From contig OZ076409.1 of NCBI GenBank assembly GCA_964187785.1, positions 44,022,001-44,086,000 of the forward strand: a DNA stretch of 64,000 nt, written 5' to 3'. The stretch is from Amphiscolops sp. MND2022 (lineage: Eukaryota). The translations under genes and the position numbers were made by a program. Shown here piece after piece: positions 1,950 through 18,582 of this stretch; the stretch's first letter is position 1, and every line of letters starts with the position of its first letter. The notes under the pieces are model-generated. The model searched no databases. It was not told where the DNA came from and worked only from the letters and a program-made list of their open reading frames with translations.

Positions 1950-3974
1950 CTGAAACAAAACTAGATGTTTTTTCATTCATGTTTTTGACTTTTTTATCTA
2001 ATATATCTTTTCTATGTTTTATGTACTTTGGAAATTCTCGGACAACTCTCAAACTGGTCTATATATTTTGACAGACGACGTTTGAGTCGGAAAAATTCAC
2101 TTCCCCAAAGATGATTTATGACCTTAGCAAACGCTACATTTTAAACAGAGACCGATTAATACACCACAAATTTATGAGAAACAGACAACCTAGCACGATT
2201 TTATTACTGATTGATATAATTTTAGTCGATTTTCATCTAGAACCACGAACTAACAATTTTCGATTTTTAATCTCTAGTCCATGTGGTACAGCGTCAGTCA
2301 TGCATGCTGAGAAAAGTTTTGGTAGAGTTTGTAAATTGCAAAGTCAAAAACTGCTTATTGAACAATCGAAGTGAGACAAAATTTTAATTCTGTGGCCTCA
2401 ACTTGTTTCGCGGAAGCTCGCATGACTATCCTTCCATTAATGTGAGCATGTTTCCCTAGATTCTGAAAAACCAATGCACAACGTCAACTGTTGGATTCCA
2501 CACAAGATATTTTATCTGCACGTTTTTTCAATGTTTTTAGAAATGATACAGCCATAAAACAACCAAAACATCACAGACTCTACAGGAAAAAAATACAAGG
2601 ACGCATTAAAGCTACAATAAAAACCAACTGGTGTTCATTAGGAACTTACAAAATGGAGATTGATGGTAAATGCAGCAATGTACCCATCTTCTTACACGCC
2701 AATGGAAAGACGACCATGCTGGTGAAAAAAATCTGTTGCTACACATTGTCGCATTTCATGTTCATTTTCCTTTGTTAAACACAGACTGAAAATGTTAAGC
2801 GGGACAACGAATACACAACTGATTTTAACGCGAACATCAACACAGCGACAACTAAAGTCATACTTGCATTCTGAAAAGCAAAGTAGGGATATCTTTTATC
2901 AACTGAAATACGTCCTGTTTTCATCCGTATTAATAGAAGTTTGGCAAAAAATGTATATATTTTCATCGACAAAATCAAAGACTCTCTGCTCTCGAAACGC
3001 CTGAAACTAAAAGCCCATAAAACAGGTCAAAATGTTTTGAGCATGCAGTCTAAATTAATGCGGTCTATTACATGTTGTCGACGACTGGTAGGCCAAATAC
3101 CATTGATTGGCCTAACACCATTGATTAAGAATGTATCTGTTGAAAAAATTGTCGTGGAGTACTAGCAGCTTCTAGTATCTTTACATAAAATGCCTTCCGT
3201 AAGAATGTGTCATGTCATTTCCTGCTCTAGGAATGAGCCCCCTCAACGTATGGGCTCATTCATATATCTGCAACTGCAAAATACCGTGAAAATGAATATT
3301 ATCTACAAAAATAGACTTCATCTATCATTTCCACGGAATTTTTTTGATTAAATCATTCATAAAAACTTCCAGAAGCAAGTTTTAAAACTCCAAACTGATT
3401 TCATGATTTTAAAGAAACTGATAGCTGAAGTTTTGTATTTAAAAACAAGGCGAACTTGCTTCTACGTTTTACGTTAGCTAAAAAATCAAATAACAGCAGA
3501 TTTAGATTTTTTAGCTTCAACTTTTACGTAAAACGCAAATTACCTCGGTTATAACGTCAAAAATTCGGATGATGAAAAACCCGCATTCGCAAATTTTATA
3601 GAAAACCCGCCGATTTTTGGTGTTAACAGATGAGACTGGAGTGAAGTTTACCATTGATTGAGTTCTCCATTCGAGTTTTCTACCCAAAAAACTGTTCTTC
3701 GCAAAAAAAAACGTCAAAGAGGTGTCGACTGACAGGACTTCGCTGATGTTTTGCAGCACAAACCGTGAAAAATGAATACCTTGAACAGTACCAGTTATAG
3801 ATATAGTCTTGCGTTTTCATGGATTGGTTTCCCAACAAGTTAATGCGCCCATGCACACGGTAGACATTCAGTTTTCCCCGAGGAAATGGGCATTGACTGG
3901 CTGTCTTACAGTACAGATTAGAAAGCCACAAAAGGCGTATGGGCTGTTGTCAAGAAAAGACTGGCAAAACAGTT

Positions 3975-4309
3975 ACTTATATCTTCACTTTTAAGATGAG
4001 TATTTATGGCTGGCGGCTGGATGCAGGAATGGAGAGCAGTCAAGTCTTCGGAACATGGATCACAATCCTCAGATTAGTTCTCTCTTTTCTTATTGAAAAC
4101 ACAACCATGCAATTCTCTAGTTTTTGTCAGCACTGATGTTTTTTACTTCATAAATATTATTATAGTTATTTGTTCAAAGATAGATGCTGATTAAATAGTT
4201 AAAAGGTTAAAGTTCTGTCATAGGTAAAATAGTTTTAAGGTCAAATATTTAAGAGTTCTTTCAATCAGTTCTTTTGTCCTCAACATAGGAATGTTTCAGC
4301 TATGTTACA
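3975..4309 (-). repeat. 3' LTR (335 bp)
   Basis: No differences found by eye versus 17895-18229. Minus-strand termini TGTAAC...ATAAGT. Confidence 0.95.
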
Positions 4310-4321
4310 CTTCCTCTCATC
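4310..4321 (-). promoter_or_regulatory. Polypurine tract
   Basis: GATGAGAGGAAG immediately 5' of the 3' LTR on the minus strand. Confidence 0.8.
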
Positions 4322-4647
4322 GAGAAACTTCCGGCATCTGGAAAAAAGCCATCATACAGTCGGAGGAGTAGTGTAGTGGAGATTAGAAGCTGAAATTGCC
4401 AAGTTGAGTAGTCCACTTCCAATAATTCCATTGAAAGAGCCCAAGAGAAAAGTTTTGGAGAGCAGCACAAGTCCCAGTTTCATGTAGTTGTGATGAAGTT
4501 GTATATTTGATCCAGTCCAGTTGAATATTGTCGAGCCAAAGATTACTGCATTTATAATTTACATATACTGCAGAAGAAAATATATTAAAGGATTTGTTTT
4601 GATAAAGTTCGATGATGAATGAATAATTAAACTGAAGGATCGTGAAG

Positions 4648-6993
4648 TCAGGCAGTGATATCGACATGAACTGCCTCAATATCGCTTTGATCATGAACCA
4701 TTTGAGCAGGCCTAACTTGGGAGTTGCTATGTGGGACTATTAATGATGAGTGAAGGTTGTTGGCTGATTGGCAATCTTTGGATTGGGTCGTTGCTTGTTC
4801 AAACATTGAACTTGACATTATAGAGACTTTTGGTTTTGAACGTGAAAGATGATATATTGTTCCAAATTTTTTTTGAAATTTATCCTCAGCATGAGAGTCA
4901 GTTGTTTCCAATTTCATCACAGGTTTAGCGCGAACTCTTTTTTTGTTTTTATCAAGTAAAGATGGAAACAGTTTTGATGCCAAATTGTATCGATGATAAA
5001 TATACATAAAGATCAAGTGCAAAGCTGTCGATACAATGAACACAGTTAATGTCAGCATGAATGAAATTCGGAACGGAACGTATTGATTAAATTCTTTCGT
5101 TAAGGCTGGTTTCAAGAGTTTCATTTCTGATGCATATGGTCTGGCAATGTCGATCATGTGTTTGACTTCACGATTCTTTGGTCCTTTTGCTAACTGTAGC
5201 TTTACCTCTTTCAACAATTTCACTCCTGCTTCAGCTTTCGATGTGTAGAACGGTAATTCATCCAAAGGGGGGACTTCCATAACCAATGAAGCTATAGGAT
5301 TAGGCAGAGAAACTTGCAATTTTATTGATGGAATGTGAGCGCAACTTGATAAATCAGATCGGATTTTGATGTTGTCAGTCATAATTTGCATTCCACATGC
5401 TAAAGTGATGAGACATATGCGGCATCCGCGAAAAGAAGAGCCCTGAACAGATGAAGATGAAACTTCACGAAGGGTAACGGCGTGAGCGGATTGAATTAGC
5501 CAAATGCCATAGCCTAAGTTTGTTGCTTGTTCGATGGCAGGCAGTTGTACAATTGTAGTATCACATACTGCAAGAGCCTCTTAAGCTGTACTAGAATATA
5601 AAGTAGCGAGGCAAGATGAATGACCCATCTCTGTTGGAACAGATTCTGAACAGATTCGGTAACGAGATGAGCCAAGACAATGCTCAAACTGTTCAGCAGA
5701 GAGGACAGATGACTCCATGTGATCCTCCGACAAAGCTAAATATGGGGCTTCGATGTTCCATGTAAGAGCCGACTGAGGATCGTCTGGATACGGCATCGGA
5801 ATTAATTTGGCTTCATATACAGTAAAAACCGTCTGCTTAGATGCTAGCGGGATGTTTAGGGTCATCAAAAGACCTGCTTTAACCGTAATAGCATCTGCTA
5901 AGAGCTTGGAATCGAAGTAAGATAGCAAATCTGACATTGGAATAGCTAAAGACAGCCTATCCTCAGCCGTCGTCTGTGTCATAGCAACACTTCTAAGAAT
6001 AACCAGCAATGATTCTGTCGGTACTAAGGACATAGGTAAATGACCTCTAAGTATGACAGGAATCGAGTTTAGGATGTTCATACGGAATGCAAATAGCGCT
6101 GCGCGATAGCTCTTTACACTTGCATGTATCATTGCTAAGAGAGAAGAAAGGGTGTCGAAATTAAAGTTCAGTTGCTGGTTCGAAAATAGAAGCTGATTGC
6201 AGTCGCGAAGCACATGGAAATTGTGTTCGAAGATGTCAAATTGTTGTTGAATAATATTCCAGTTCGTATCCTGCGTTGCAACAAGTTCCCTTTGGATGTC
6301 GTGAAGGGCCGCCAATTCGTTTTCAACCATAAAAAATTTTTTGTCCGTAGATGTTGTAAATTCAGTTACATACTGGGTTAAAACGTCCTGGAAGTCAGAT
6401 AGTTTGCGAATGTTCTCGGCATTTGCCTTCGCATCGTCTTGGCAGGAACCAAAAATGCCTTGTAGTCCACAAGAGTCGGAACTACCAAGAGCCACTCCTC
6501 CTCCAAAAAGGCCGACTGCGGCAAGAGCCGCTAGTCCCACTTGGGATCCACGTCGGTGGCGAGTATTCCGCGGCTGTTGAGGAGGGGAAAGAAACATTGC
6601 TGTTTCATTGCGTAGGAGGGCAACATCGAGTTCCGCGGTGTGGATTTCATTTTCTATTTGATGTAACATCCAGGTGACATTGAACGGCGTGGAATTCGTT
6701 GAAAAGTGACTTGAAAAATCCAAGGGACAAAAAACAGATGGAAGTTCCCACATCGACGCGAGTTTGGCCATTAAGGCCACAATATCTGGTTTAAGTGCGA
6801 AGTCATAAGTCGGAAAGGGAACTAAAAATTCGACTTTTATAAATTTCTCCGCAAGCAAGATTTTGCTGCGTTCATGGAACAGAACACCCTTTTCTTGAAT
6901 TTCGTTGGGGTTATTGGAAGCTTCTAAATTAGAAAGCCACTCACTTTGAACTGAAGCAGGGGTGAAGAAAACCAGTAAGAACAAAACTAACAT
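4648..6993 (-). CDS. env: Envelope glycoprotein, class I fusion (F-like), ~781 codons, one in-frame TAA at 5581-5583
   Basis: Signal peptide MLVLFLLVFFTPASVQS; furin site RHRR (6561-6550) followed by fusion peptide GSQVGLAALAAVGLFGGGVALG; heptad region; Cys-rich region; TM ISFMLTLTVFIVSTALHLIFMYIY; cytoplasmic tail. ORFs 5581-6993 and 4648-5391 share a frame with 63 open codons between them. Confidence 0.88.
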
Positions 6994-7378
6994 TGATCCG
7001 TTTTGTTTTTTGTTTTTGTGTTTCCCCCTTTTTTTGATATTGAATAAAAGCGAAGAATTCTCGAATGAATACTATATCAACTATTTCGATCGATTTCAAA
7101 TGCAAGAATGGCACTTTGGGTATTTTTGGGGGCGGGGTTTGGGGATTTTTGAAAGATCACAAGAAATGTGATGCCATTTGTTTTCAGTATCCGGTGCCCG
7201 TTTGATATTTACAAAATTCGAGATGTTAAAGTTTGTTTTGCCAAGTCATGTTTACTGCACTGGTTGTTTGACCTGTGATTGAAAAGTCAGATTTTCGAAT
7301 TCGGACGATTGAAAGTGATCATGAAATGAACGGAATGTTTATTCAGTTGTCAAGCGTTTATCCGAGTTTTTTAGTAAA

Positions 7379-7792
7379 ATGAAAATTCTGAATGTGCTGG
7401 CGGCAATCTGCGTTTTTGCTATAATGGAAGCATGCATGCAAAAGGAGTGGAGAGGGCACAGAATAACGTGTTGTGCTAATGGAACGTCAATGGAAACACA
7501 TACAGGGCAAAAGATTTGGGTCGCGCAGAGGCCTGCTATCTGTGATGTAACAAGTGCCAATGAAAAGTCCGCCAAGTCCAAGAGCTCAAAAATTCTCAAA
7601 GGCTTGATCATCCTTGGCACGTTGATGCTCTGTGCAGGCTGTTGCTTAAAAAAATTTCCTTACCGAAAAGTGTGGCAAATGCTATCAAAATGTTGTGCTT
7701 CGAAAATCGATGGTACAGAACAAGAAGGCATCGAAATCAAAGTAATCAAAAAGGAAGCAAGTCCAAAACTGGCACGCAGTCAGTCTTTTTAG
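7379..7792 (+). CDS. Antisense accessory ORF, 137-aa predicted type I membrane protein
   Basis: ATG start, signal-like MKILNVLAAICVFAIMEAC, Cys-containing ectodomain with NGT sequon, hydrophobic ILKGLIILGTLMLCAGCCL followed by basic KKFPYRK. Confidence 0.65.
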   Translation: MKILNVLAAICVFAIMEACMQKEWRGHRITCCANGTSMETHTGQKIWVAQRPAICDVTSANEKSAKSKSSKILKGLIILGTLMLCAGCCLKKFPYRKVWQMLSKCCASKIDGTEQEGIEIKVIKKEASPKLARSQSF

Positions 7793-8153
7793 ACTAAATC
7801 AGAAAACGAGTTTTGTTGTATTTACGTCGTCGTAAAAGTACTGAAAGTTTCGTTACATGTACTCGCGTAATGATACAGTTAACCGTTTGTTACTTTTGTT
7901 ATGTTTGTTTTAAGGCACGAGTTTTAAATTAAAACTTGCAAATTCGATGCCCCTCTTTTTTTTTATTTTTTTTTGAAGTGCAGCAAAACATAAGCCAAAA
8001 TTATTTGAAGCAAGCAAATTAGTAGAGAGGAAAAGCTATTGAAAGAAAACGGACAATATTCGAAAATTTAAACTGACAAGAGAACCGTTGAAATTAGTCA
8101 AGGTAGAAACAAATGGAAGATAACTGAAGGTTATACATGATAGGCGGAAATGT

Positions 8154-8438
8154 TCAGACAGTTTGATAAGCATTAAGCAGAGTCTTCTTCAGCTGGCGAA
8201 ATTTGATGAGTGTCCTCAAACCGCCGAATTTCGGGACAGGGAAATCCTGTCTTTGAAATAGAAGGACAATTTCAATCCATTTAGGGGAACCGTAGTCCAG
8301 CTGCTGCAGCGTTCCATCTGATAAGATTAACGAAATACTCATGAGCTCGTCAACTTTGATACGGATGATTGGGTAGTCTGCGCCATTATGCATACACGTC
8401 CATGTGTAGTGAAACGTAAACTCCATGTCGTTAAGCAT
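8154..8438 (-). CDS. Small element-sense accessory ORF, ~94 aa, unknown function
   Basis: ATG at 8438 (MLNDMEFTFHYTW...), globular-looking composition, divergent from the + strand gene starting at 8673. Confidence 0.4.
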   Translation of the reverse strand: MLNDMEFTFHYTWTCMHNGADYPIIRIKVDELMSISLILSDGTLQQLDYGSPKWIEIVLLFQRQDFPVPKFGGLRTLIKFRQLKKTLLNAYQTV

Positions 8439-8672
8439 GGTGAGGGCAAAAGAGATTACTTGAAGGTAGTATGAATGCTTTAAGACAACTGAGAACAAGG
8501 GTGGCAATAGCAAATAATGAATGGAAGAAAATGTCAATCTAAACGTTCGAATAAGAATCATCAGTCGAAATGTCACGCAAAGAGATCATGTTTTGTTTGT
8601 TGCGCACTGGTGACCTTTTGTAATTTGCAAAGCAAACAAACAAACAAAGTAAATTGGATTTCAGAGAGCAAG

Positions 8673-9964
8673 ATGGAACAAACTATGTTTGATGCGATTA
8701 TAAAAATGAAGGCAACTGGTGAAATAAATGCGTTAGTCTGTCAAACAAGGAAACAGAAATTTTTGTGGAAAACTCGGCTCAGTTTCTTCACTCTCAGCAG
8801 TACGGGTGAGTTACTATGGAATGGTCTAAAAGTCCCAACAACAGAGGAGCTAACACTAGTGTTATGGCCTTTTCATGAGACTGAGAAGAAACACGTATTA
8901 GACGAAAAGGTACTACGTAAAGTCTTATCAGACAAAGGATACGCCCTACCTACATTCATTGGGGGCCTTGAACGAGCGGTGAAAGTGTAAGTAATAATTA
9001 ATATGAAAGTCATCAAAATTTAGCATAGATTCACATGGTATTCCATGACTTCAGATTTCTTCACGATTGTCCGGAATGCTTTTGGACAAGGCATGAGGGA
9101 TACCGATGGGAAAGGGCGGCTAGTGTATCAATAATGGAGCGACAAGATGCCTGTAAAAGGTTTGCCCTGACGTGGGAAAAGTTGCAAGATGGGCCAGAAG
9201 GTGGAGGGTTAGTCGGTTTAGGTGAACCTCCTGTCGCATCCTGCAAATCTGTTTTTGCGCAGGGTGGAGGAAAATGCTGGGCATCGAGTATATTTTTCCT
9301 ACTGACTGGGAAAAAAAGCGGTTAGGTCGAAAAACAAGATTTAAAATAAGAAAATTGCTGTGAAAGCCAGGTGACTTTTTTGTTGCAGATAAGAAAAAGG
9401 ATGGTGCGGCACTGAAACGCATCAGAGATACGATCGGAAATCATATGAAAACAGATGAATTTAAGAAGTCATGCGTGGAATGTTTGGATTATGCTCCCAA
9501 TGAATTCGAGCTTGATGCTATGCTGCGATCGAATTTGGACATTAGTGAACCTTGGGTAAAAAACTTTTTGAGAATTTTGAAGAATGTCAAATGATTTATG
9601 GAGAACATATGATTCATGATGTTCTAGATGTTAGGAACTGCACAAGTGTTAGGCTGGGACATCTTGGTGTTCTGGCGTTACACTGTCAAAAAAGGTTGGA
9701 TTCGGTACCCGGCAAAAGCAAGAGGCCCATCATCAAGAGTTGCTTTCCTATTCCATGTGATCCATTCGGAAAAGGAGAAAAAATTCCACTGCGAGCCGTT
9801 GATAGATTGGCCCATTGAAAAGTAAGTATTGACACAAAAGAAACAGGTAAAGTAAGAAAAAGAAGATAATTTCGAAATATGTATGTAGCAACGATCCAAC
9901 GTATAGAGGGAGGGAGGCAGGCGAAGGGCCATCCGCGAAGAATGCGAGAAAGTACTGGAACTGA
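8673..9964 (+). CDS. Antisense spliced accessory gene: HHCC zinc-binding motif plus OTU-like cysteine protease, 338 aa; exons 8673-8986, 9055-9320, 9389-9555, 9628-9821, 9889-9964
   Basis: Four GT-AG introns of 68, 68, 72 and 67 nt, all phase-compatible, give a 1017-nt ORF. Motifs: H-x5-H-x35-CPEC; GGGKCWASSIFFLLTG; LKRIRDTIGNHM; GTAQVLGWDILVF; FHCEPL. Confidence 0.8.
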
Positions 9965-10428
9965 TCATTGCATCGACTGATTATCATAGTCAATATCATC
10001 AAAACTAGTCATCTCAGAAAATTTAAGAGTGTTTGTGTTTCAAATGTGAAGGAAACTAGGAGAAAAGCAAGTAGGAAGCGTGCGAGCGTAGCAGGATCGA
10101 TTGCGGCAATAGGGAGGCCACGCAATTCGGCGAAACTTGGAGAAATCCCTTCAATGAGTGACGGCGGCGAAGGTGTCAAATAGGACGCGGAAAAAATATT
10201 TTTTATCTCCGATTCTACAAAGGAGGGTACCAAACGAAAGAACAGCACATTCTAAGACCTACCACCGAAAATGTAGGTTCAATGCGATAATTTAACAGCG
10301 AAAAATGCCCTTGCAAGAGGTCGATTTTCGAGTTTTGTGTGATCTTGTTGCATTGGATTGTAAAGAATAGCCTGGATCAGCGTGAAGTGGGCTGGAAGGC
10401 ACTGCACAAACTCAAAGCAGTACTGCTA

Positions 10429-13400
10429 TTAACGAGAAGGCTGAACAATTGTGATTGTAATCTGAGACTTTGAAAAAATACGATATAAAATCGAAAAAAC
10501 AGTTGGCCAATGTAAGCGGTCACGACCACTTCCAAGTCTTGGAATGCTGAGCTTTCGAATATTAGAGCGCTCTAGATGCTGACGCAAGGCCATCAAGCTC
10601 AATTCAAGCGATTCATACGTAGATTTATGAAAGAATCTTGTTTTTGTGACTAAGTTATAGATGTAACGTTGATTAAATCGGTCGAAATAAGAGACAAGTG
10701 ATCCCTGCGGTAAACGTTTTTGAGCCTGAGAACGTAGTTGACGAAGCTCCGGGTTACGATATGCGATTGCAGAGGCAAGGCCTCGCTTCATATGAAAATC
10801 TGCTGAAACACAGTGAGCAATAGATTCAGGAGATTCTAAAATATTCGAAGAGAAACAAAAGTTTGGATGAATGTCTGAAGAAATAGAATTTAAAACATTG
10901 GATGAGGACAGTCTTTTCTTCAAATTACGGAAATTATAGCGTGCTTTTACTTCCTTTTGATGCTGTAGATACTCCTGAGGAGATTGCGGTGTCAGCTGTT
11001 GCGCTGTAGTTGGGTGGACCCGTGGACTTGCATCAGAAGGAGGTCGAGTTCGTTGACAAGATTCAAGTAAGATCGTGCGCTTATCTGCTTTTGGTAAGCT
11101 TGTCCCTGGGACCTGAGTCAACTGTGTTCTATGTGGAGGTTGTCCGTAAGTTTTTGGTCCACGTCCAATAAATACTGGAACTGTTTGACGGTTCTCATCA
11201 AAACTTAGTTGTCTATCAGTTCTACGTAAAAGAGTAGTCGGAGTTTTCGGACTGACTGTGGGTAGGTCTTGCTCTGGCGAGGCAGTTATGAAGGCACCAG
11301 CGGATTGTGCAGAATCTTCATTAGAAGAGTCATCTGAAGAAGCCCGAGAATCCGTGGGCTCAGCTGCAAGTTGCGCTGGTGGTGCCGTATCCTCGTCCTG
11401 GGCTGGCAGAGCGGGAAGCGCTGGAGCCGCTGCTACAGCTGGTAGGGGTGGAACTGCCGGCCCTGGAGCTGGTCCTACCGGAATAACAGCTGGTGCGATA
11501 GGAAAACTAAGAGAAACTGTGACCGGTGGAGGCTGTTCTTCGTTTTGAACTACACAAGGCGCCTCTGAGGGAGGCAACAAAAGTGTTGGAATGCTTTCAT
11601 CAAAAATAGCTGGTTCGCCTCTGAAGCGTCCAAGCATAGGATCGCGTTGAAATTTATCCGGGTCAATTTGCTGTAAGTCCTCAACTTGATATTGCGGTAC
11701 GACGGGTCTAAGACGAATGCGATGTACGCATTGAGTGTAGTTTGTACCGACCTTACGAATTATGTAATTAGAATTCGTTAAGACTTGTTCGACTCGATAC
11801 AATGGTAACCAAATAGGAAGGAACTTACTCGAAAAATCAGACTGCGTCATTAGTTTTGGATTCAAAAGAAGACAAAAGGAAAACTGTTTCAGAGGTTGCG
11901 CTTCTGCTTTGTAATCATAATATGCGCGGTATCTATTATACATTTCAGTCAATTTACTTTTCGCTTCGGAAAATTTTTGTAACATGGCGTCCTGCAATGC
12001 AAGCACATATTCTGTAGTAGGTTGCTCACGTTCAAGCGAAGTTTTATTAAACCTGAGATCCAATGGTTTCAAGGGTTCACGACCATGAAACAATGCGGTC
12101 GGACTTGTCCCTATTGCAAAATGGTAAGAAGTATTGTGAATAAATGCAGCAAGTCGCACGTATTTGTACCAGTCATTCCACTGCTCTGTGGTGTTCAACT
12201 TCAAAATTCGTTTGAGGGCGCTATGCGAGCGCTCCACACTACCTACAGTTTGAGGGTGTTTTAGACTGGCATGTTCCAATTTTATTTCCAAAAGTTTAGT
12301 CAATTCGTGCATCAATTCACTCACAAAAGTAGTACCCAAGTCGGATAAAATTGTTTTTGGAAGATAACTATGACGGAAAAATATCGACGCAAGTTCTCGT
12401 GCAACCGTTTCCGATCGCCCATTAATAAGTGGGACTGCGAAAAGATATTTTGTAAATACATCAATACCCGTAAGGACATAACGGTAGAGCGGGGACTGTA
12501 ACGGACCGACAAGGTCAATTTGTAACATTTCGCCCGGGTAAGATTTCAATGAGGAGACCGGTTGCAACGGAGTTTTCAGATTTTTGCTTGGTACACGTTT
12601 CAGTTGCAAGCATTGTAGACAGTTTTGGATAGTTGACGTTAAGTATTCTGTAAAATTCCGAAAATAAAAGCGTTTTCTAAATTCTTCAACCGTTTTATTG
12701 ATACCCATATGGCCTGCTGTAGGCGAGTTATGCAAGCGGTAAATTACTTCGCGCCAAAGGGATTTAGGAACACAGTACTGTTTGTGTTGAACTTTGCCTT
12801 GATCGTCATAAAAAAGTCGATAAAGAACATTTTCCTCAATGATTAGGCGCGGAAACTGTTTACGATATTTTCGCAAAGCTATCGGTAAATTTGGCGACAT
12901 GTCCGGCGAACCTCGGTCTTTCCATTGCATTACTTCACGAATGATCTCGTCTTGATTTTGTACTAATGCGAGGTCTATTGGCTCCGACCGATTAGGCAAA
13001 TCATCAAGAATGTCACTAAATTCGCCTGACGAGACTAGGTTTATTTGATTCACTTGACAAAATGAGTAAAATCCGGTTATTTCGAGAGACGGTTCCGTCT
13101 GCGCTTCAGTTGTTTTCTGTAAAAATTGTTCATACAGACCGAATTCTTTCAACTGAGAAATTAAGCGTTCATCAGCCTTGTCGTCTATGGCTTCTGGAAA
13201 AGTTTGTCTACTTGAAATATTAGATAAAGCGACATCCGGCGCTTTCGCTTCTTTTTCTATTTCAATCTCTTTAATAGGTATCCGATCAGTCAATTTAAGA
13301 GAAAGAGTTAAAGAAGGGTCGGTTTGCATTCGTGATAAAAAATCTGCTGCCGAATTTGCTTTACCAGGAATATGAGCAAGGAGAATGTTAAAAGACAAAA

Positions 13401-15924
13401 CTCTATCCAAACAGTTCCATAGCGATGGGTGAATACTTTTAGATTGGAAAAATTGCGTGAGACTACGGTTATCGGTTAAAACTAGCACAGGTTTAGTGGC
13501 GCCCCATATAAAATGTGCAAAATGATCTAAGGCGAAATAGAGAGCAAGAAATTCTTTATAGTAAACCGAAAATTTCAATTGCGTCGGACCAAACAATCGA
13601 GATCCAAAGGAGACCGGCGCGTATACTTTTTTTTCTTTTCCTTGTTGATCTAACAAGTAGTCCTCAATCATGAGAACAAAACCTGTACCATGATAACTAG
13701 CGTCACAAAGAAGAACGTATTGGAGGCCAGGTTTGGCCAATCGCAAAGTAGAATTGGTAGCATTTCGTAAATCTGTTTTCAATACATCTAATGCTTCGCT
13801 ATGTTCTTTCGTGGTTTTAAATTCTACATCTTTTCGCAAAAGTTTATAAAATGGTAGCAATTTTTGACCCAAGTTGGGCATGAATGAACGGAAAAATTGG
13901 ACAAATCCGATCAATCTCTTCACTTGTTTAACTGTTTCTGGCATTCTGATTTTTTCGAGGAATTTGTTTATTTTGTCTGCTTCAGGTGAGATTCCTTTAG
14001 GAGTTATAGTGCTTCCCAAATAATCAATTTTTGTTGTCCCAAATTCGCATTTGTGAGCAGACAATTTTAATCCCGATGCTCGCAGGCAATCAAATATTTT
14101 CTATAAAGCAGGAATCATTTCATCAAAGGTGTTTACTCCCATGGCAATGTCGTCCATGAATTGAGTACAAACATTGGCAGCAAGACATTTATCTAGATAA
14201 TGTTTGACGAACGAACTAAATCCAGTGACGGATTTGTTCAGGCCTTGGGCTAAACAATTATAAGCAAATGTGCGCGAAGCGAAATTAAATGCCAACAATT
14301 GTACCGAAAGGTCATCCGCCATTTGAACGCAATGGTATGCTTGCGAACAATCAAGTTTACAAAATAGTTTCTTCCCCGCAAAGTGGTTTGTCGCATCGGT
14401 CATGTTTGAAATTGGGAAATTGCTATTTAAGTAATCATGGCGTAGGAGGTGATTGACTCTTCTGAGATCAATAAGTATGCGAAGCTTGCCAGATGGTTTG
14501 CGATGTACAAATATCGGACTAGAATATTTGGAATGTGACAGCGTAGTTATGATGTTAAAATATTGTAATAACGCCAATTCAACTAAGATTTCGTCACGCA
14601 AATGAATCGGTGCTGGTGGACCTTGAACGTATACCGGAAGTTGATGAGCAGGCGTTAATTTGATCTTCAATTCGGTATTATACCCAACATCGAAGCGATG
14701 TTTTGCAAACACGTCATGATATTCAACAAGAAAATCCTCCAATTTTGACTTTTCATCAGCGCTCAAAACACATGTATCCCACGCAAATTTTTTCAAAAAT
14801 TCTTGTCTATCGTGTAAATTAGTTTTTGGGTTTAGTTTTTCACAACGACGAAGTTGCAGAATTTGATCGTAAATTTCACGTTGAAGCGGTGACAAATTTG
14901 AAAGATCCGTACATGTTTCGGGAGTCGGAAACCAAAGTTTTGAGTAATCTGGTGGCGGCCGACCATTGTCAGTGTCGAATTTTTGAAAATGTATATCGTG
15001 AATTAGCTGATTGAGTTCGTTTTCAAAATCGTCAGGGTTTCTCATTTTTGCTAGGGCCAATAATTGTGGATCTATTTCAAGGAGATAATCGGCCTGTGAC
15101 TCGCGCAAAATTTCAAAACGTGCAATTTGTTTTTTGCTATTTAGCGTAATCTGGGAATCAGACAAATTGATCGCTGATATGTATATTTTATTGTCATTAT
15201 CCATCTTGCTCAGAGACGAAGTTAATGCAATATTGGCTGTTTCCTCCAGATTCTTGTTTGGAATTACTAATCCTGTGCAATTAGCAAACTGGTCAGTATA
15301 TTCATCCAAATAGCATTCAAGGAGGACTTGTTGTTGCGGTCCAATATTTACTTTTTTGCTCAGTAGGATAGGAATATTTTTCATTTTTTTTACAAATTGT
15401 CGTTTTTTCCCAGCGTCCGGTTTCATTTCATTGAGTTGAACTGTAAAATCAGGCAGTTTCAGTAAGTTGTTTTTTGGGTCGATCGTAATATTTTGTTTTT
15501 TAAAGAAAGAGTTGCCCAAAATTACACTATTCATTTTTGGTAGCACAAGAAAACTGTCGGTAAAGGAATGAATTCCAATACAGAATGTGAGATTCACCTG
15601 ATTGTCAACTGACACTCGTTGTCCTGAAGCCATGCGGACAGACGTAAAATTTGGAGTTTCATTTTTAATTAATTCAGGATGATTCGCTCGTAATTCATCG
15701 TATAAATTTTGTGGCAATGCATTAGCACAGGCGCCAGTATCAATTAGGGCTCTCCGGCGAATGTGCGGAGAAAATTTTAATTTAACGTAAGAAAGATTTT
15801 CACCTTCAAGAGGCAAAACAGCGCATATATCTGGCTCATTTAATTCTATGTTACGTGTGTGGGGCTCATAAGACTGGTTTTCATGTAGAGAAGTAGGCGG
15901 TGGAATCTTGTGCTGCTTTTTTAG
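10429..15924 (-). CDS. pol: Pol polyprotein (PR, dUTPase-like spacer, RT, RNase H, integrase, Pro/Ala linker, macrodomain); one in-frame TAG at 14101-14103
   Basis: ALIDTGA (protease), FMDD (RT), LLCDAS / TDNRSL (RNase H), H..H..CLQC plus IDLVG, SDLGT, VER (integrase). The two listed ORFs share a frame and are separated by one stop and 12 open codons. Confidence 0.95.
10432..10860 (-). other. TARG1/OARD1 (Poa1p-like) macrodomain at the Pol C-terminus
   Basis: SIAHCVSADFHMKRGLA...RYIYNLVTK..FFHKSTYESLELSL...LSIPRLGSGRDRLHW..V..I...F....ITI, collinear with TARG1 SLAHCISED.RMGAGIA...RYIYYLITK...HKPTYENL..SL...LSMPRIGCGLDRLQW. Confidence 0.88.
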
Positions 15925-17189
15925 TTTTTTTGATTTTGATTGAACGGCATTTGAGCTCCTCGTTGTGGAGGGTTACCTTGCGCGGTACAATCTTTTGCTA
16001 GATGATTCGGATATCCGCAATTATAACAAGTATGTGTTGATTGTTGCGTATAAGGCATGTAATGCGGATCCGGAGTAAAAACTTCAAATGTAGTTTGCGA
16101 TGAACCTTGATTAGAATTTCCTTGTTGAAAGTTGTCCTGATTCGGATTTGACCATTGTTGCTGGCTATTTGGATTCTGATTAAAATTCGAGTTTTGGTAA
16201 TTTTGATTCGACTGATTGTAATTTCTGCCGTAATTGTTCTGCCAAGGTCGTCCACGCCCTTGGTAACCTCGACCTCGGTTTCCACGGTTATTGCCGCGAT
16301 ACCGACCACGGTAGTTTCCTCGATTTCCGCGATAGCCTTGGCCACGATAGTTTTGAGAGCCGCGTTGCGAATTGTTTTGGTTTTGCTGGTTTTGTAACTG
16401 AGTGGTAAAATTCGTAGCTTGCGCTTCTAGTTTTTTGGACATTTCGTTCAGTCTATTGTCCATAGTTTCTTGACTATGGCTCAATTTTGTGAGAGCTGTA
16501 ACTAAAGTATCAGATACTGAAGGGCGCACTTCACTGAAAGCATCCATAACCGAATCTTCAACCTTACAAAGGTTATAGATCGAAAGTTGTTTCCGAGCGA
16601 ATATACACAAATCTTCAACCGTTGTATTTTCCGGTTGTTCCAAAAGTTTCGCTCGAAGCCAGCCCGGCATATTTTTTATAAATTGTCTCCGAATCTGAGC
16701 GGAGCGCGCTTGTTGCGCTGAATGAATTATTTCGGCTCTTCGGGCGGTTTCAGAATCAAATCGTGTTTGTTCCACTGCTGCGTCCGGTGCGGCACCATCA
16801 ATTGGTGCTACAGCAGGTGGATTTGGATCGGGATAAGCTTTAAGTGCTTTCGTTTGTAACGTGACTAAAAAATTCTCTGGATTGTCTGTTTTCGGATCGA
16901 ATTTCAAGTTTTCCAATTTAAGCATATGCAATTCCTGAAGTCTCGGATTACAAAAATGGTCACGAAGAGCTGTCAAAGAGAGATCTAAGTCCGCACGTGT
17001 CGCTACCGGTAGTGTTTGAAAATAGCGGAGCGCAGCGTCTCGAAGATGAAGTTGTAAAAAGTTGGCTTGCTGCGCTTGCGGTACCGCAGCTACTGCTAAG
17101 ATACTTCGCAACAAATGTTCAAATTCACGAAAATTTTCCTTTTCTAAACCCGAGTAGGGTGTTAGCGAGAGTTGAGGTAAAGCAGCCAT
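15921..17189 (-). CDS. gag: Gag, 422 aa
   Basis: ATG at 17189 (MAALPQLS); capsid-like helical region, R/G/N/Q-rich tract, zinc knuckle CYNCGYPNHLAKDC. Confidence 0.92.
   Translation of the reverse strand: MAALPQLSLTPYSGLEKENFREFEHLLRSILAVAAVPQAQQANFLQLHLRDAALRYFQTLPVATRADLDLSLTALRDHFCNPRLQELHMLKLENLKFDPKTDNPENFLVTLQTKALKAYPDPNPPAVAPIDGAAPDAAVEQTRFDSETARRAEIIHSAQQARSAQIRRQFIKNMPGWLRAKLLEQPENTTVEDLCIFARKQLSIYNLCKVEDSVMDAFSEVRPSVSDTLVTALTKLSHSQETMDNRLNEMSKKLEAQATNFTTQLQNQQNQNNSQRGSQNYRGQGYRGNRGNYRGRYRGNNRGNRGRGYQGRGRPWQNNYGRNYNQSNQNYQNSNFNQNPNSQQQWSNPNQDNFQQGNSNQGSSQTTFEVFTPDPHYMPYTQQSTHTCYNCGYPNHLAKDCTAQGNPPQRGAQMPFNQNQKN
15924..15930 (-). promoter_or_regulatory. -1 ribosomal frameshift slippery heptamer A AAA AAC
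   Basis: Directly before the gag TAA; the -1 frame is open from here into the protease. Confidence 0.8.
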
Positions 17190-17882
17190 GATTTTAAAAG
17201 TTAAGTGTGAAATAGAGAGTGACGAATAAAACAAACTAAGATTGTAGTGAAGAAAAAATTGAAAAATTGTCTAGCAAAGTGTGTAAAATGCAGTCGAACA
17301 CTGACGTGTAGTTTGAACTTCGAAAACTGAACAACGAATATAAAACTTTCAAGGCGAAACAAGAAAGGTTTGAGATCAAATTTATAGTGTTTTTGCAACA
17401 ATAACGATTTGCAGTGAAAAGAGAAAATTTGCAATTGGAAAAAAGTAAAAAGATTGCAGAAATTCACAGTTGAGTTTCGAAAAGAGTAATAGCTGTGAGA
17501 CACAGTTCAGTTGAAAATGAAAACAATTGAAGCACTCATGAAATTCGAAAACTACACTATATCACTTTACTGCTTCAGAAGTGAATCAGACTCACCGACT
17601 GTATTCGTACTGGCATTTTGAAGTCATCATGAAATTGAATACAAATATCGGAGCATCAACATTCGCCCAATTGGAGAAAGTCACCAAAATTCATCATTGA
17701 TTTCTGTAGTTTCCAGTTTCTGCCGTGCCGTGTTTGTTTCAGTTGTTACAGCCTCATGGATCGGGTGCTGGTCGTGGATGATGTGGCTGGAACACCGCGG
17801 GTGGTTGGTCGGGGGTCTCGTGTGAGCGTTTCAACACAAAAAGGAGAGTTCTTCTCTGTATTGCATAGTGAGGATTGTTTTG

Positions 17883-17894
17883 CTCCTGTCACCA
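17883..17894 (-). promoter_or_regulatory. Primer-binding site TGGTGACAGGAG (possibly tRNA-Leu type)
   Basis: TGG start immediately after the 5' LTR; the same 12-mer follows the 5' LTR of the second Gypsy (53338-53349). Confidence 0.8.
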
Positions 17895-18229
17895 ACTTAT
17901 ATCTTCACTTTTAAGATGAGTATTTATGGCTGGCGGCTGGATGCAGGAATGGAGAGCAGTCAAGTCTTCGGAACATGGATCACAATCCTCAGATTAGTTC
18001 TCTCTTTTCTTATTGAAAACACAACCATGCAATTCTCTAGTTTTTGTCAGCACTGATGTTTTTTACTTCATAAATATTATTATAGTTATTTGTTCAAAGA
18101 TAGATGCTGATTAAATAGTTAAAAGGTTAAAGTTCTGTCATAGGTAAAATAGTTTTAAGGTCAAATATTTAAGAGTTCTTTCAATCAGTTCTTTTGTCCT
18201 CAACATAGGAATGTTTCAGCTATGTTACA
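17895..18229 (-). repeat. 5' LTR (335 bp)
   Basis: Direct repeat of 3975-4309, followed by the PBS. Confidence 0.95.
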
Positions 18230-18582
18230 CAGTTTCTTGAGAAAATAGGAAAAAAGTTCAATAAATGTAGAATTTCGCCGAATTTGAGGTGGTCCAAAAC
18301 GGTTTAGTATTATTTCACCCCACGTTCATTTCACCCCAAATTCATTTCACCCCACGTTCATTTCACCTCACACTTAAATTATCAAATGCCTCTCAGATAA
18401 ATGACTATTGCCACCCAATTTCAATCTAATAGAAAAGCGTCTTGGTTCTGATTACCAAATAGACACAGAGGCGAAGCGGTGCTTCGCAACACATGACGAA
18501 GACATCGATTATTTTAATATGCGTATATATATTATTTTAATCGCATGCGTATATATTCAACAGTTCAACTTTGTTCAATAAC

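Follow-up and report, generated by a model that had tools for sequence, protein, structure and literature searches.

TARG1-type macrodomains, putative ADP-ribose erasers, at four polyprotein positions in Ty3/gypsy retroelements of Amphiscolops sp.

The 64,000-nucleotide stretch of Amphiscolops sp. MND2022 DNA analyzed here, hereafter the window (assembly GCA_964187785.1, contig OZ076409.1, positions 44,022,001 to 44,086,000), contains a 14.3-kb, env-bearing Ty3/gypsy LTR retroelement whose Pol polyprotein ends in a macrodomain. Database searches and a predicted structure confirmed that this domain is of the TARG1/OARD1 type, as had been predicted, and related domains were found at three other polyprotein positions in elements of the same genome. 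Judging from sequence comparison and the modeled fold, we put the chances at about even that it is a portable, putative ADP-ribose eraser that serves in counter-defence against host PARP enzymes, and not a reader of integration sites.

The element lies on the minus strand at window positions 3975–18229, between identical LTRs, and shows the LTRs, target-site duplication, zinc-knuckle gag and PR–RT–RH–IN pol order of Ty3/gypsy elements (Metaviridae). The features are:

3970–3974: 5-bp target-site duplication, 3'-LTR side
3975–4309, minus strand: 3' LTR, 335 bp, no difference from the 5' LTR
4648–7071, minus strand: env-like gene resembling F-type class I fusogens; a hydrophobic peptide follows a basic cleavage motif
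7325–7792, plus strand: antisense ORF between pol and env, 155 aa; signal-peptide-like and transmembrane-like stretches
8511–8990, plus strand: antisense ORF between pol and env, 159 aa; no Pfam match
10432–10860, minus strand: TARG1/OARD1-type (ALC1-like class) macrodomain, 143 aa, Pol C-terminus, with Lys84 and Asp125 equivalents
10861–14100, minus strand: pol, second part; remaining RT, RNase H, integrase (H2C2, rve, SH3-like), Pro/Ala/Ser-rich linker of ~230 aa
14101–15972, minus strand: pol, first part; aspartic protease, weak dUTPase-like domain, N-terminal part of RT
15921–17270, minus strand: gag, 449 aa stop to stop; CCHC zinc knuckle
17895–18229, minus strand: 5' LTR, TGT...AGT on the element strand; adjoining putative primer-binding site starts with TGG
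18230–18234: 5-bp target-site duplication, 5'-LTR side

The gag and pol frames overlap across an A-run, where a −1 frameshift probably occurs. The pol gene of the window copy is interrupted by an in-frame stop at 14101–14103, inside RT and upstream of the macrodomain, which was absent from the original prediction. The ORF that follows (10429–14100, minus strand, 1223 aa) encodes RNase H, the H2C2 zinc finger and the rve core of integrase, and then a GPY/F-like SH3 stretch with a weak match to Integrase_p58_C (E 0.04). Its read-out agreed with the predicted linker and ~140-aa terminal domain, the macrodomain being made up of 143 codons (10860–10432) immediately ahead of the pol stop. The dUTPase-like match in pol was weak (E 0.0016). 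The env gene is also split by an in-frame stop (5581–5583) and had no match in Pfam or in PDB sequences. An Atlas search with the env returned as its first match (0.95), at a low recognition score, a cluster in which 26% of the members have Fusion_gly. It is 23% identical to the env of a second lineage (family B, below), which matches Baculo_F under the cut-off (E 3.6e-5). These sequence matches are modest evidence that the window env resembles F-type fusogens.

All 14 LTR pairs examined in the family had 5-bp target duplications, no two alike, and in the 13 pairs whose two LTRs were equally long these differed at 0–2 bases. By these signs the family is young. The antisense ORF at 7325–7792 resembles a small membrane protein; a similar ORF is present in a related element (L056:5646–6038). 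Elsewhere in the window, long direct repeats form two nested pairs, 40383–41892/53365–54911 (86–94% alike) and 37375–38109/57368–58112 (75–82% alike), which are possibly older LTR elements.

When PDB sequences were searched with phmmer, the best match to the terminal domain was human TARG1/C6orf130 (E 8.2e-22, query residues 11–138), followed by the T. aquaticus DarG macrodomain (E 1e-7). An AlphaFold2 model of the 143-aa domain had a pLDDT of 89.4. Foldseek searches with this model placed TARG1 at ranks 1–8 (best E 1.7e-13, TM 0.86, range 0.82–0.87) and DarG at ranks 9–12 (E 1.2e-10). Counted along the alignment, with the offset inferred from chain lengths, the lysine of NLVTK corresponds to Lys84 and the aspartate of GSGRD to Asp125, the catalytic dyad of TARG1 (described in passages of PMC9411070 and PMC7050489). 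The prediction that both are retained held up across 48 genomic copies (L001–L048; the 30 best matches and 18 picked for diversity), with the lysine found in 48/48 and the aspartate in 47/48, the one exception being a D to E change. The equivalents of S35, G43, G121 and G123 were also present in all 48.

With human TARG1 (PDB 4J5Q, 4J5S, 2L8R) the domain shares 33% identity, the dyad and the equivalents of His32, Ser35 and Gly121/Gly123. It differs in being fused to a retroelement Pol and in several positions. In the glycine-rich diphosphate-binding loops, G43, G121 and G123 are retained, the G41 equivalent is Lys in all 30 close copies, and the C122 equivalent is Ser; in the window subfamily, G41/A42 are replaced by Lys and Arg, and L124 is R in the window copy. 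One subfamily has a changed N-terminal pocket, with H32 to Y in 4/11. DarG (PDB 5M3E, 5M3I), the second-best structural match, belongs to the same class and has the catalytic lysine, but lacks the acidic partner residue, according to a passage of PMC9411070, that is present here. No DarT-like partner was found by Pfam among the ORFs of the element.

A Pfam search, from which a macrodomain hit had been expected, did return Macro for the window domain, but at 18 bits, below the cut-off of 22. The OARD1-like gene of the host also misses this cut-off (20.3 bits), showing that the Pfam model is insensitive to the TARG1 class. Routine annotation would therefore overlook the domain, and because of these low scores TARG1-type domains are probably under-annotated in animal transposons.

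A genome search with the domain scored at least 150 matches among 1235 candidates; a search with the long Pol, considered by its macro region, yielded only four near-identical relatives among 132 candidates. The domain was found at four positions. At position A, after the integrase, it occurs in the window lineage (L031–L039). At position B it sits between RNase H and the zinc finger of the integrase, in an env-bearing lineage with ~30% RNase H identity (L042, L043, L048). Position C, after Gag-protease (L040/L051, L041/L052), is found in elements whose 1.9-kb LTRs (99.5% identical) enclose neither RT nor integrase, and whose sole long ORF encodes Gag-protease-macrodomain (L040:6443–8953); these elements number at least 72 placed copies. 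At position D (L061–L073, L076) the domain separates protease from RT; this arrangement first came to light via database matches and belongs to a family that is abundant in the genome, with at least 99 scored matches.

Lineages A, B and D sat on separate long branches in an RT–RNase H tree. The macrodomain tree (36 rows, 147 columns, leaving out the degenerate D2 domains and most unnamed rows) placed 15 element domains from A–D on one side of a branch with support 89/93, C inside B and D inside A; six of the 15 rows are ENA proteins presumed to come from the same host. Long-branch attraction is possible, since this support is not starred and the alignment has 147 columns. In an earlier tree of 94 rows, 33 of 89 inner branches were open. 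With the macrodomains clustered and the RT lineages apart, a single capture in the host lineage and later transfer between RT lineages by recombination is the most economical account and a likely one, with moderate support.

The single best match in the genome, L089:1498–2445 (minus strand), is an intronless, single-copy OARD1-like gene of 311 aa with an N-terminal extension of no assigned match, and is likely the host TARG1. The original prediction had proposed a tree with host OARD1 as a test of capture; a recent capture from L089 found support in neither tree. The window domain grouped neither with L089 nor with vertebrate or cnidarian OARD1. Between L049 and L085–L088, synonymous divergence was 0.10–0.31 in RT and 0.60–0.79 in the macrodomain, which suggests recombination between subfamilies.

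Neutral evolution, named in the original prediction as a finding that would speak against it, was not seen: by pairwise dN/dS the macrodomain is under purifying selection. In four close pairs of the window subfamily, dN/dS was 0.14–0.18 for the domain, 0.32–0.47 for the linker and 0.01–0.06 for RT. Domain values were 0.10–0.13 in a second subfamily, 0.24–0.29 in family C and 0.05 in the single family-D pair with enough changes; more distant pairs gave 0.19–0.44 or were saturated. The abundant D2 subfamily has lost the GxGxD loop, yet its dN/dS was 0.06.

The domain is often missing altogether. Among 20 lineage-A sister loci from an integrase search, 12 had a macrodomain and eight had none, two of the eight being truncated or interrupted copies. 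The lysine and/or the GxGxD motif was absent from seven of the 12 (7/20 loci), some of which had long open Pol frames. A further 20 sister loci, picked for tails diverging from the query, had Pro/Ser-rich tails and no macrodomain (0/20). Several of the macro-less sisters are near-identical multi-copy families, which shows that the macrodomain is dispensable. No chromodomain was found by Pfam in the window Pol or in the three sister tails scanned. Since the sisters end in a plain Pro/Ser-rich tail, there is no sign of chromodomain replacement, and most likely the macrodomain was appended to a pre-existing disordered tail.

Similar proteins were found outside this host. We searched 1.84 billion representatives with a profile and scanned 30 long proteins with Pfam (28 from the profile search and two others). 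RT or RNase H together with a TARG1-like domain was present in six of the 30. The domain follows the integrase in P0355, auto-named a transposase/O-acetyl-ADP-ribose deacetylase fusion, and in P0438, and it lies in the bridge between RNase H and integrase in P0337 (from the sawfly Athalia rosae), P0086, P0116 and P0373. In the tree, all of these fell outside the clade of host-genome elements, suggesting separate captures, with weak placement. Five other proteins carry TARG1-like domains within DNA ligase III (P0114, P0090, P0102, P0108 and P0415; one cluster member comes from the copepod Oithona nana), and in P0366 the domain lies beside a polynucleotide kinase phosphatase domain.

The four bridge-type proteins also contain a second, degenerate domain beside the intact one, ahead of the integrase zinc finger. 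This domain is macrodomain-derived: hhalign gave 99.2%, and Foldseek on its model (pLDDT 74) had TARG1 at ranks 1–7 (top E 4.9e-7). Querying Atlas with the sawfly's degenerate domain returned no more than leads (0.76). A "pseudo-RNase H" has been described, in passages of PMC13524379, in the same RNase H–integrase bridge of insect errantiviruses. That paper makes no mention of macrodomains, and "macro", "ADP", "OARD" and "dUTPase" had no matches in its main text; Athalia rosae was among the species screened there, and its supplement lists no element for it. We hypothesize that this "pseudo-RNase H" may have arisen by decay of a macrodomain.

A search for host PARPs gave 32 matches; six loci were fetched and five scanned, of which four were SF1/UPF1–ZNFX1-type helicase–PARP fusions and one a tankyrase. 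The H-Y-E triad was seen by eye in two of the four fusions. L145:1533–7475, L146:1746–7418, L147:2–6040 and L148:838–6324 are long single-frame genes with an SF1 helicase and one or two PARP domains. By their sequences, the helicase–PARP genes are candidates for an expanded RNA-sensing defence family. According to PMC7050489 and PMC13036486, TARG1-type enzymes release ADP-ribose attached to acidic residues, to the ends of nucleic acids, and to thymine and uracil; the latter source describes the reversal of U- and T-linked ADP-ribose by TARG1-like enzymes, with PARP10 as the writer.

We propose that the macrodomain would be translated within Gag-Pol or Gag-protease and, as part of these products, would be packaged into the virus-like particle together with genomic RNA and cDNA, whatever its position in the polyprotein. 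In the particle, it could strip ADP-ribose from RNA uracil, from thymine or the termini of the cDNA, or from acidic residues in the element's own proteins. The writers might be the host RNA-helicase–PARP fusion proteins, to judge from co-occurrence only. Because the domain is independent of position and also present in an integrase-less element, an enzyme would suit the pattern better than an intasome tether. The original prediction had included the erasure of defensive ADP-ribosylation as one of two alternatives, and this alternative fits the evidence.

The domain could instead be a non-catalytic binder or decoy, in which a basic macro fold binds ADP-ribose, poly(ADP-ribose) or nucleic acid and catalysis is optional; it might then shield the element, help packaging or titrate host readers. 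The window domain is indeed basic, with 22 K+R versus 9 D+E, degenerate domains persist in open Pol frames and under purifying selection, as in D2, and among Pol proteins from other sources four have a degenerate copy beside an intact one. That catalytically degenerate copies remain under purifying selection argues for a binding role in some families. The retention of K84 and D125 in nearly all of the 48 copies, across three positions and down to ~36–40% identity, would however be needless for pure binding, and as a general explanation we consider this unlikely.

Still less probable, in our view, is a role in integration or repair, whereby a domain tethered to the integrase clears PARP1/2-dependent ADP-ribose from the integration gap or the cDNA ends so that host repair could complete the insertion. 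It is consistent with the integrase being flanked by the domain in two of the four positions, with the fusions to DNA ligase III and PNKP in other eukaryotes, and with the relocation of TARG1 on DNA damage (passages of PMC7050489). A tether does not fit the protease–RT position or the integrase-less Gag-protease-macro elements.

The original prediction had the macrodomain standing in for a chromodomain and possibly steering integration to ADP-ribosylated chromatin. As in chromoviruses, a small folded domain sits on a linker after the integrase, the place where some errantiviruses have a chromodomain (passages of PMC13524379), and the two unrelated Pol proteins P0355 and P0438 have it there too. 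For the best-scoring matches we measured how far each lay from the middle of its chromosome (0) towards the end (1), dropping unplaced contigs and nested duplicates; this test is coarse and compares spread at the chromosome scale. Among these matches, the window subfamily lay nearer to chromosome middles than a uniform distribution (34 copies, mean 0.37, KS p = 0.010), whereas families D (98 copies, mean 0.51), C (72, 0.53) and B (27, 0.51) looked uniform. The macro-less members of lineage A leaned the same way, however: 65 copies, of which 24 were checked and the remainder presumed macro-less from alignment extent, had a mean of 0.43, compared to 0.40 for 80 intact-macro copies (Mann–Whitney p = 0.65, at the chromosome scale). 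The skew thus tracks lineage or copy age rather than the domain, and we discarded it as evidence for targeting. The flanks of the 14 paired copies, with their differing duplications, had no common insertion target beyond shared repeats. Unlike a chromodomain, moreover, the domain has an enzyme fold and three other positions, one of them without integrase; no chromodomain was found in the sister tails scanned, and an intact hydrolase would erase the very mark it was meant to hold. Target reading is not supported by these observations, and we regard it as quite improbable.

That the domain is a neutral passenger, a captured host fragment needing only to fold and stay in frame, would agree with its absence from many sister families and its frequent degeneration, but is very unlikely and largely refuted by the selection data, given a dN/dS well under that of the neighboring linker, a catalytic lysine that does not vary, and occurrence at four positions in this genome and in other animals.

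Viral macrodomains are established counter-defence enzymes. To our knowledge, ADP-ribosylation is not recognized as a major defence against LTR retrotransposons, and such a conflict is suggested by the repeated occurrence of a TARG1-type domain among gypsy families that are young. Sister families with intact, degenerate and absent versions provide built-in controls, and the proteins are small and easily expressed for testing it. A wider proposition, which is possible but which we hold to be rather doubtful, is that TARG1-type erasers recur in animal Ty3/gypsy elements as a counter-defence module that has been overlooked, and that was acquired on several occasions and exchanged between lineages, with integrase-less Gag-protease-macro elements supplying the eraser in trans to mixed particles, and with the "pseudo-RNase H" as a possible decayed form. 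If true, PARP-mediated ADP-ribosylation of retroelement RNA or cDNA, possibly by helicase–PARP fusions like those found here, would be a widespread anti-transposon defence.

No description of a TARG1/OARD1-like domain in a gypsy element was found in the literature searched, a scope that left out most subscription papers, Repbase and CDD notes. Term look-ups on macrodomains in retroelements returned nothing relevant in PMC8672886, PMC5210030, PMC12440569, PMC5408684, PMC8120803 or PMC4245714. Macro domain ORFs are already known from fish epsilon-like endogenous retroviruses (Basta et al. 2009, as cited in a passage of the review PMC4977317), which are likewise retroelements with a macrodomain but belong to the Retroviridae. 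Accessory-module sharing is also known, and what is apparently new, no paper having been found, is the TARG1-type domain in Ty3/gypsy.

In its gag-pol-env organization, putatively F-type env and young multi-copy families, the element resembles the env-bearing gypsy "errantiviruses" of invertebrates (Chary and Hayashi, PMC13524379), to which it adds the dUTPase-like domain and the antisense ORFs. Spread of an accessory module between unrelated retroelement lineages of one host has a parallel in the DEDDy and GDSL ORF3s of bdelloids (passages of PMC5408684), and DNMT capture by retroelements, as reported in PMC5890265, is another case of a shared accessory enzyme; here the enzyme has an ADP-ribose hydrolase fold and lies in frame within the polyprotein. 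Other genes were seen in related elements: a JmjC-like accessory ORF (L055:1845–2744, minus strand; E 7e-4, under the cut-off), a DnaJ accessory ORF (L053:5891–6916, plus strand; E 3e-7) and, in a family-D element, a different env with a Monjiviricetes_fusion match (L074:3412–5568; E 2e-32).
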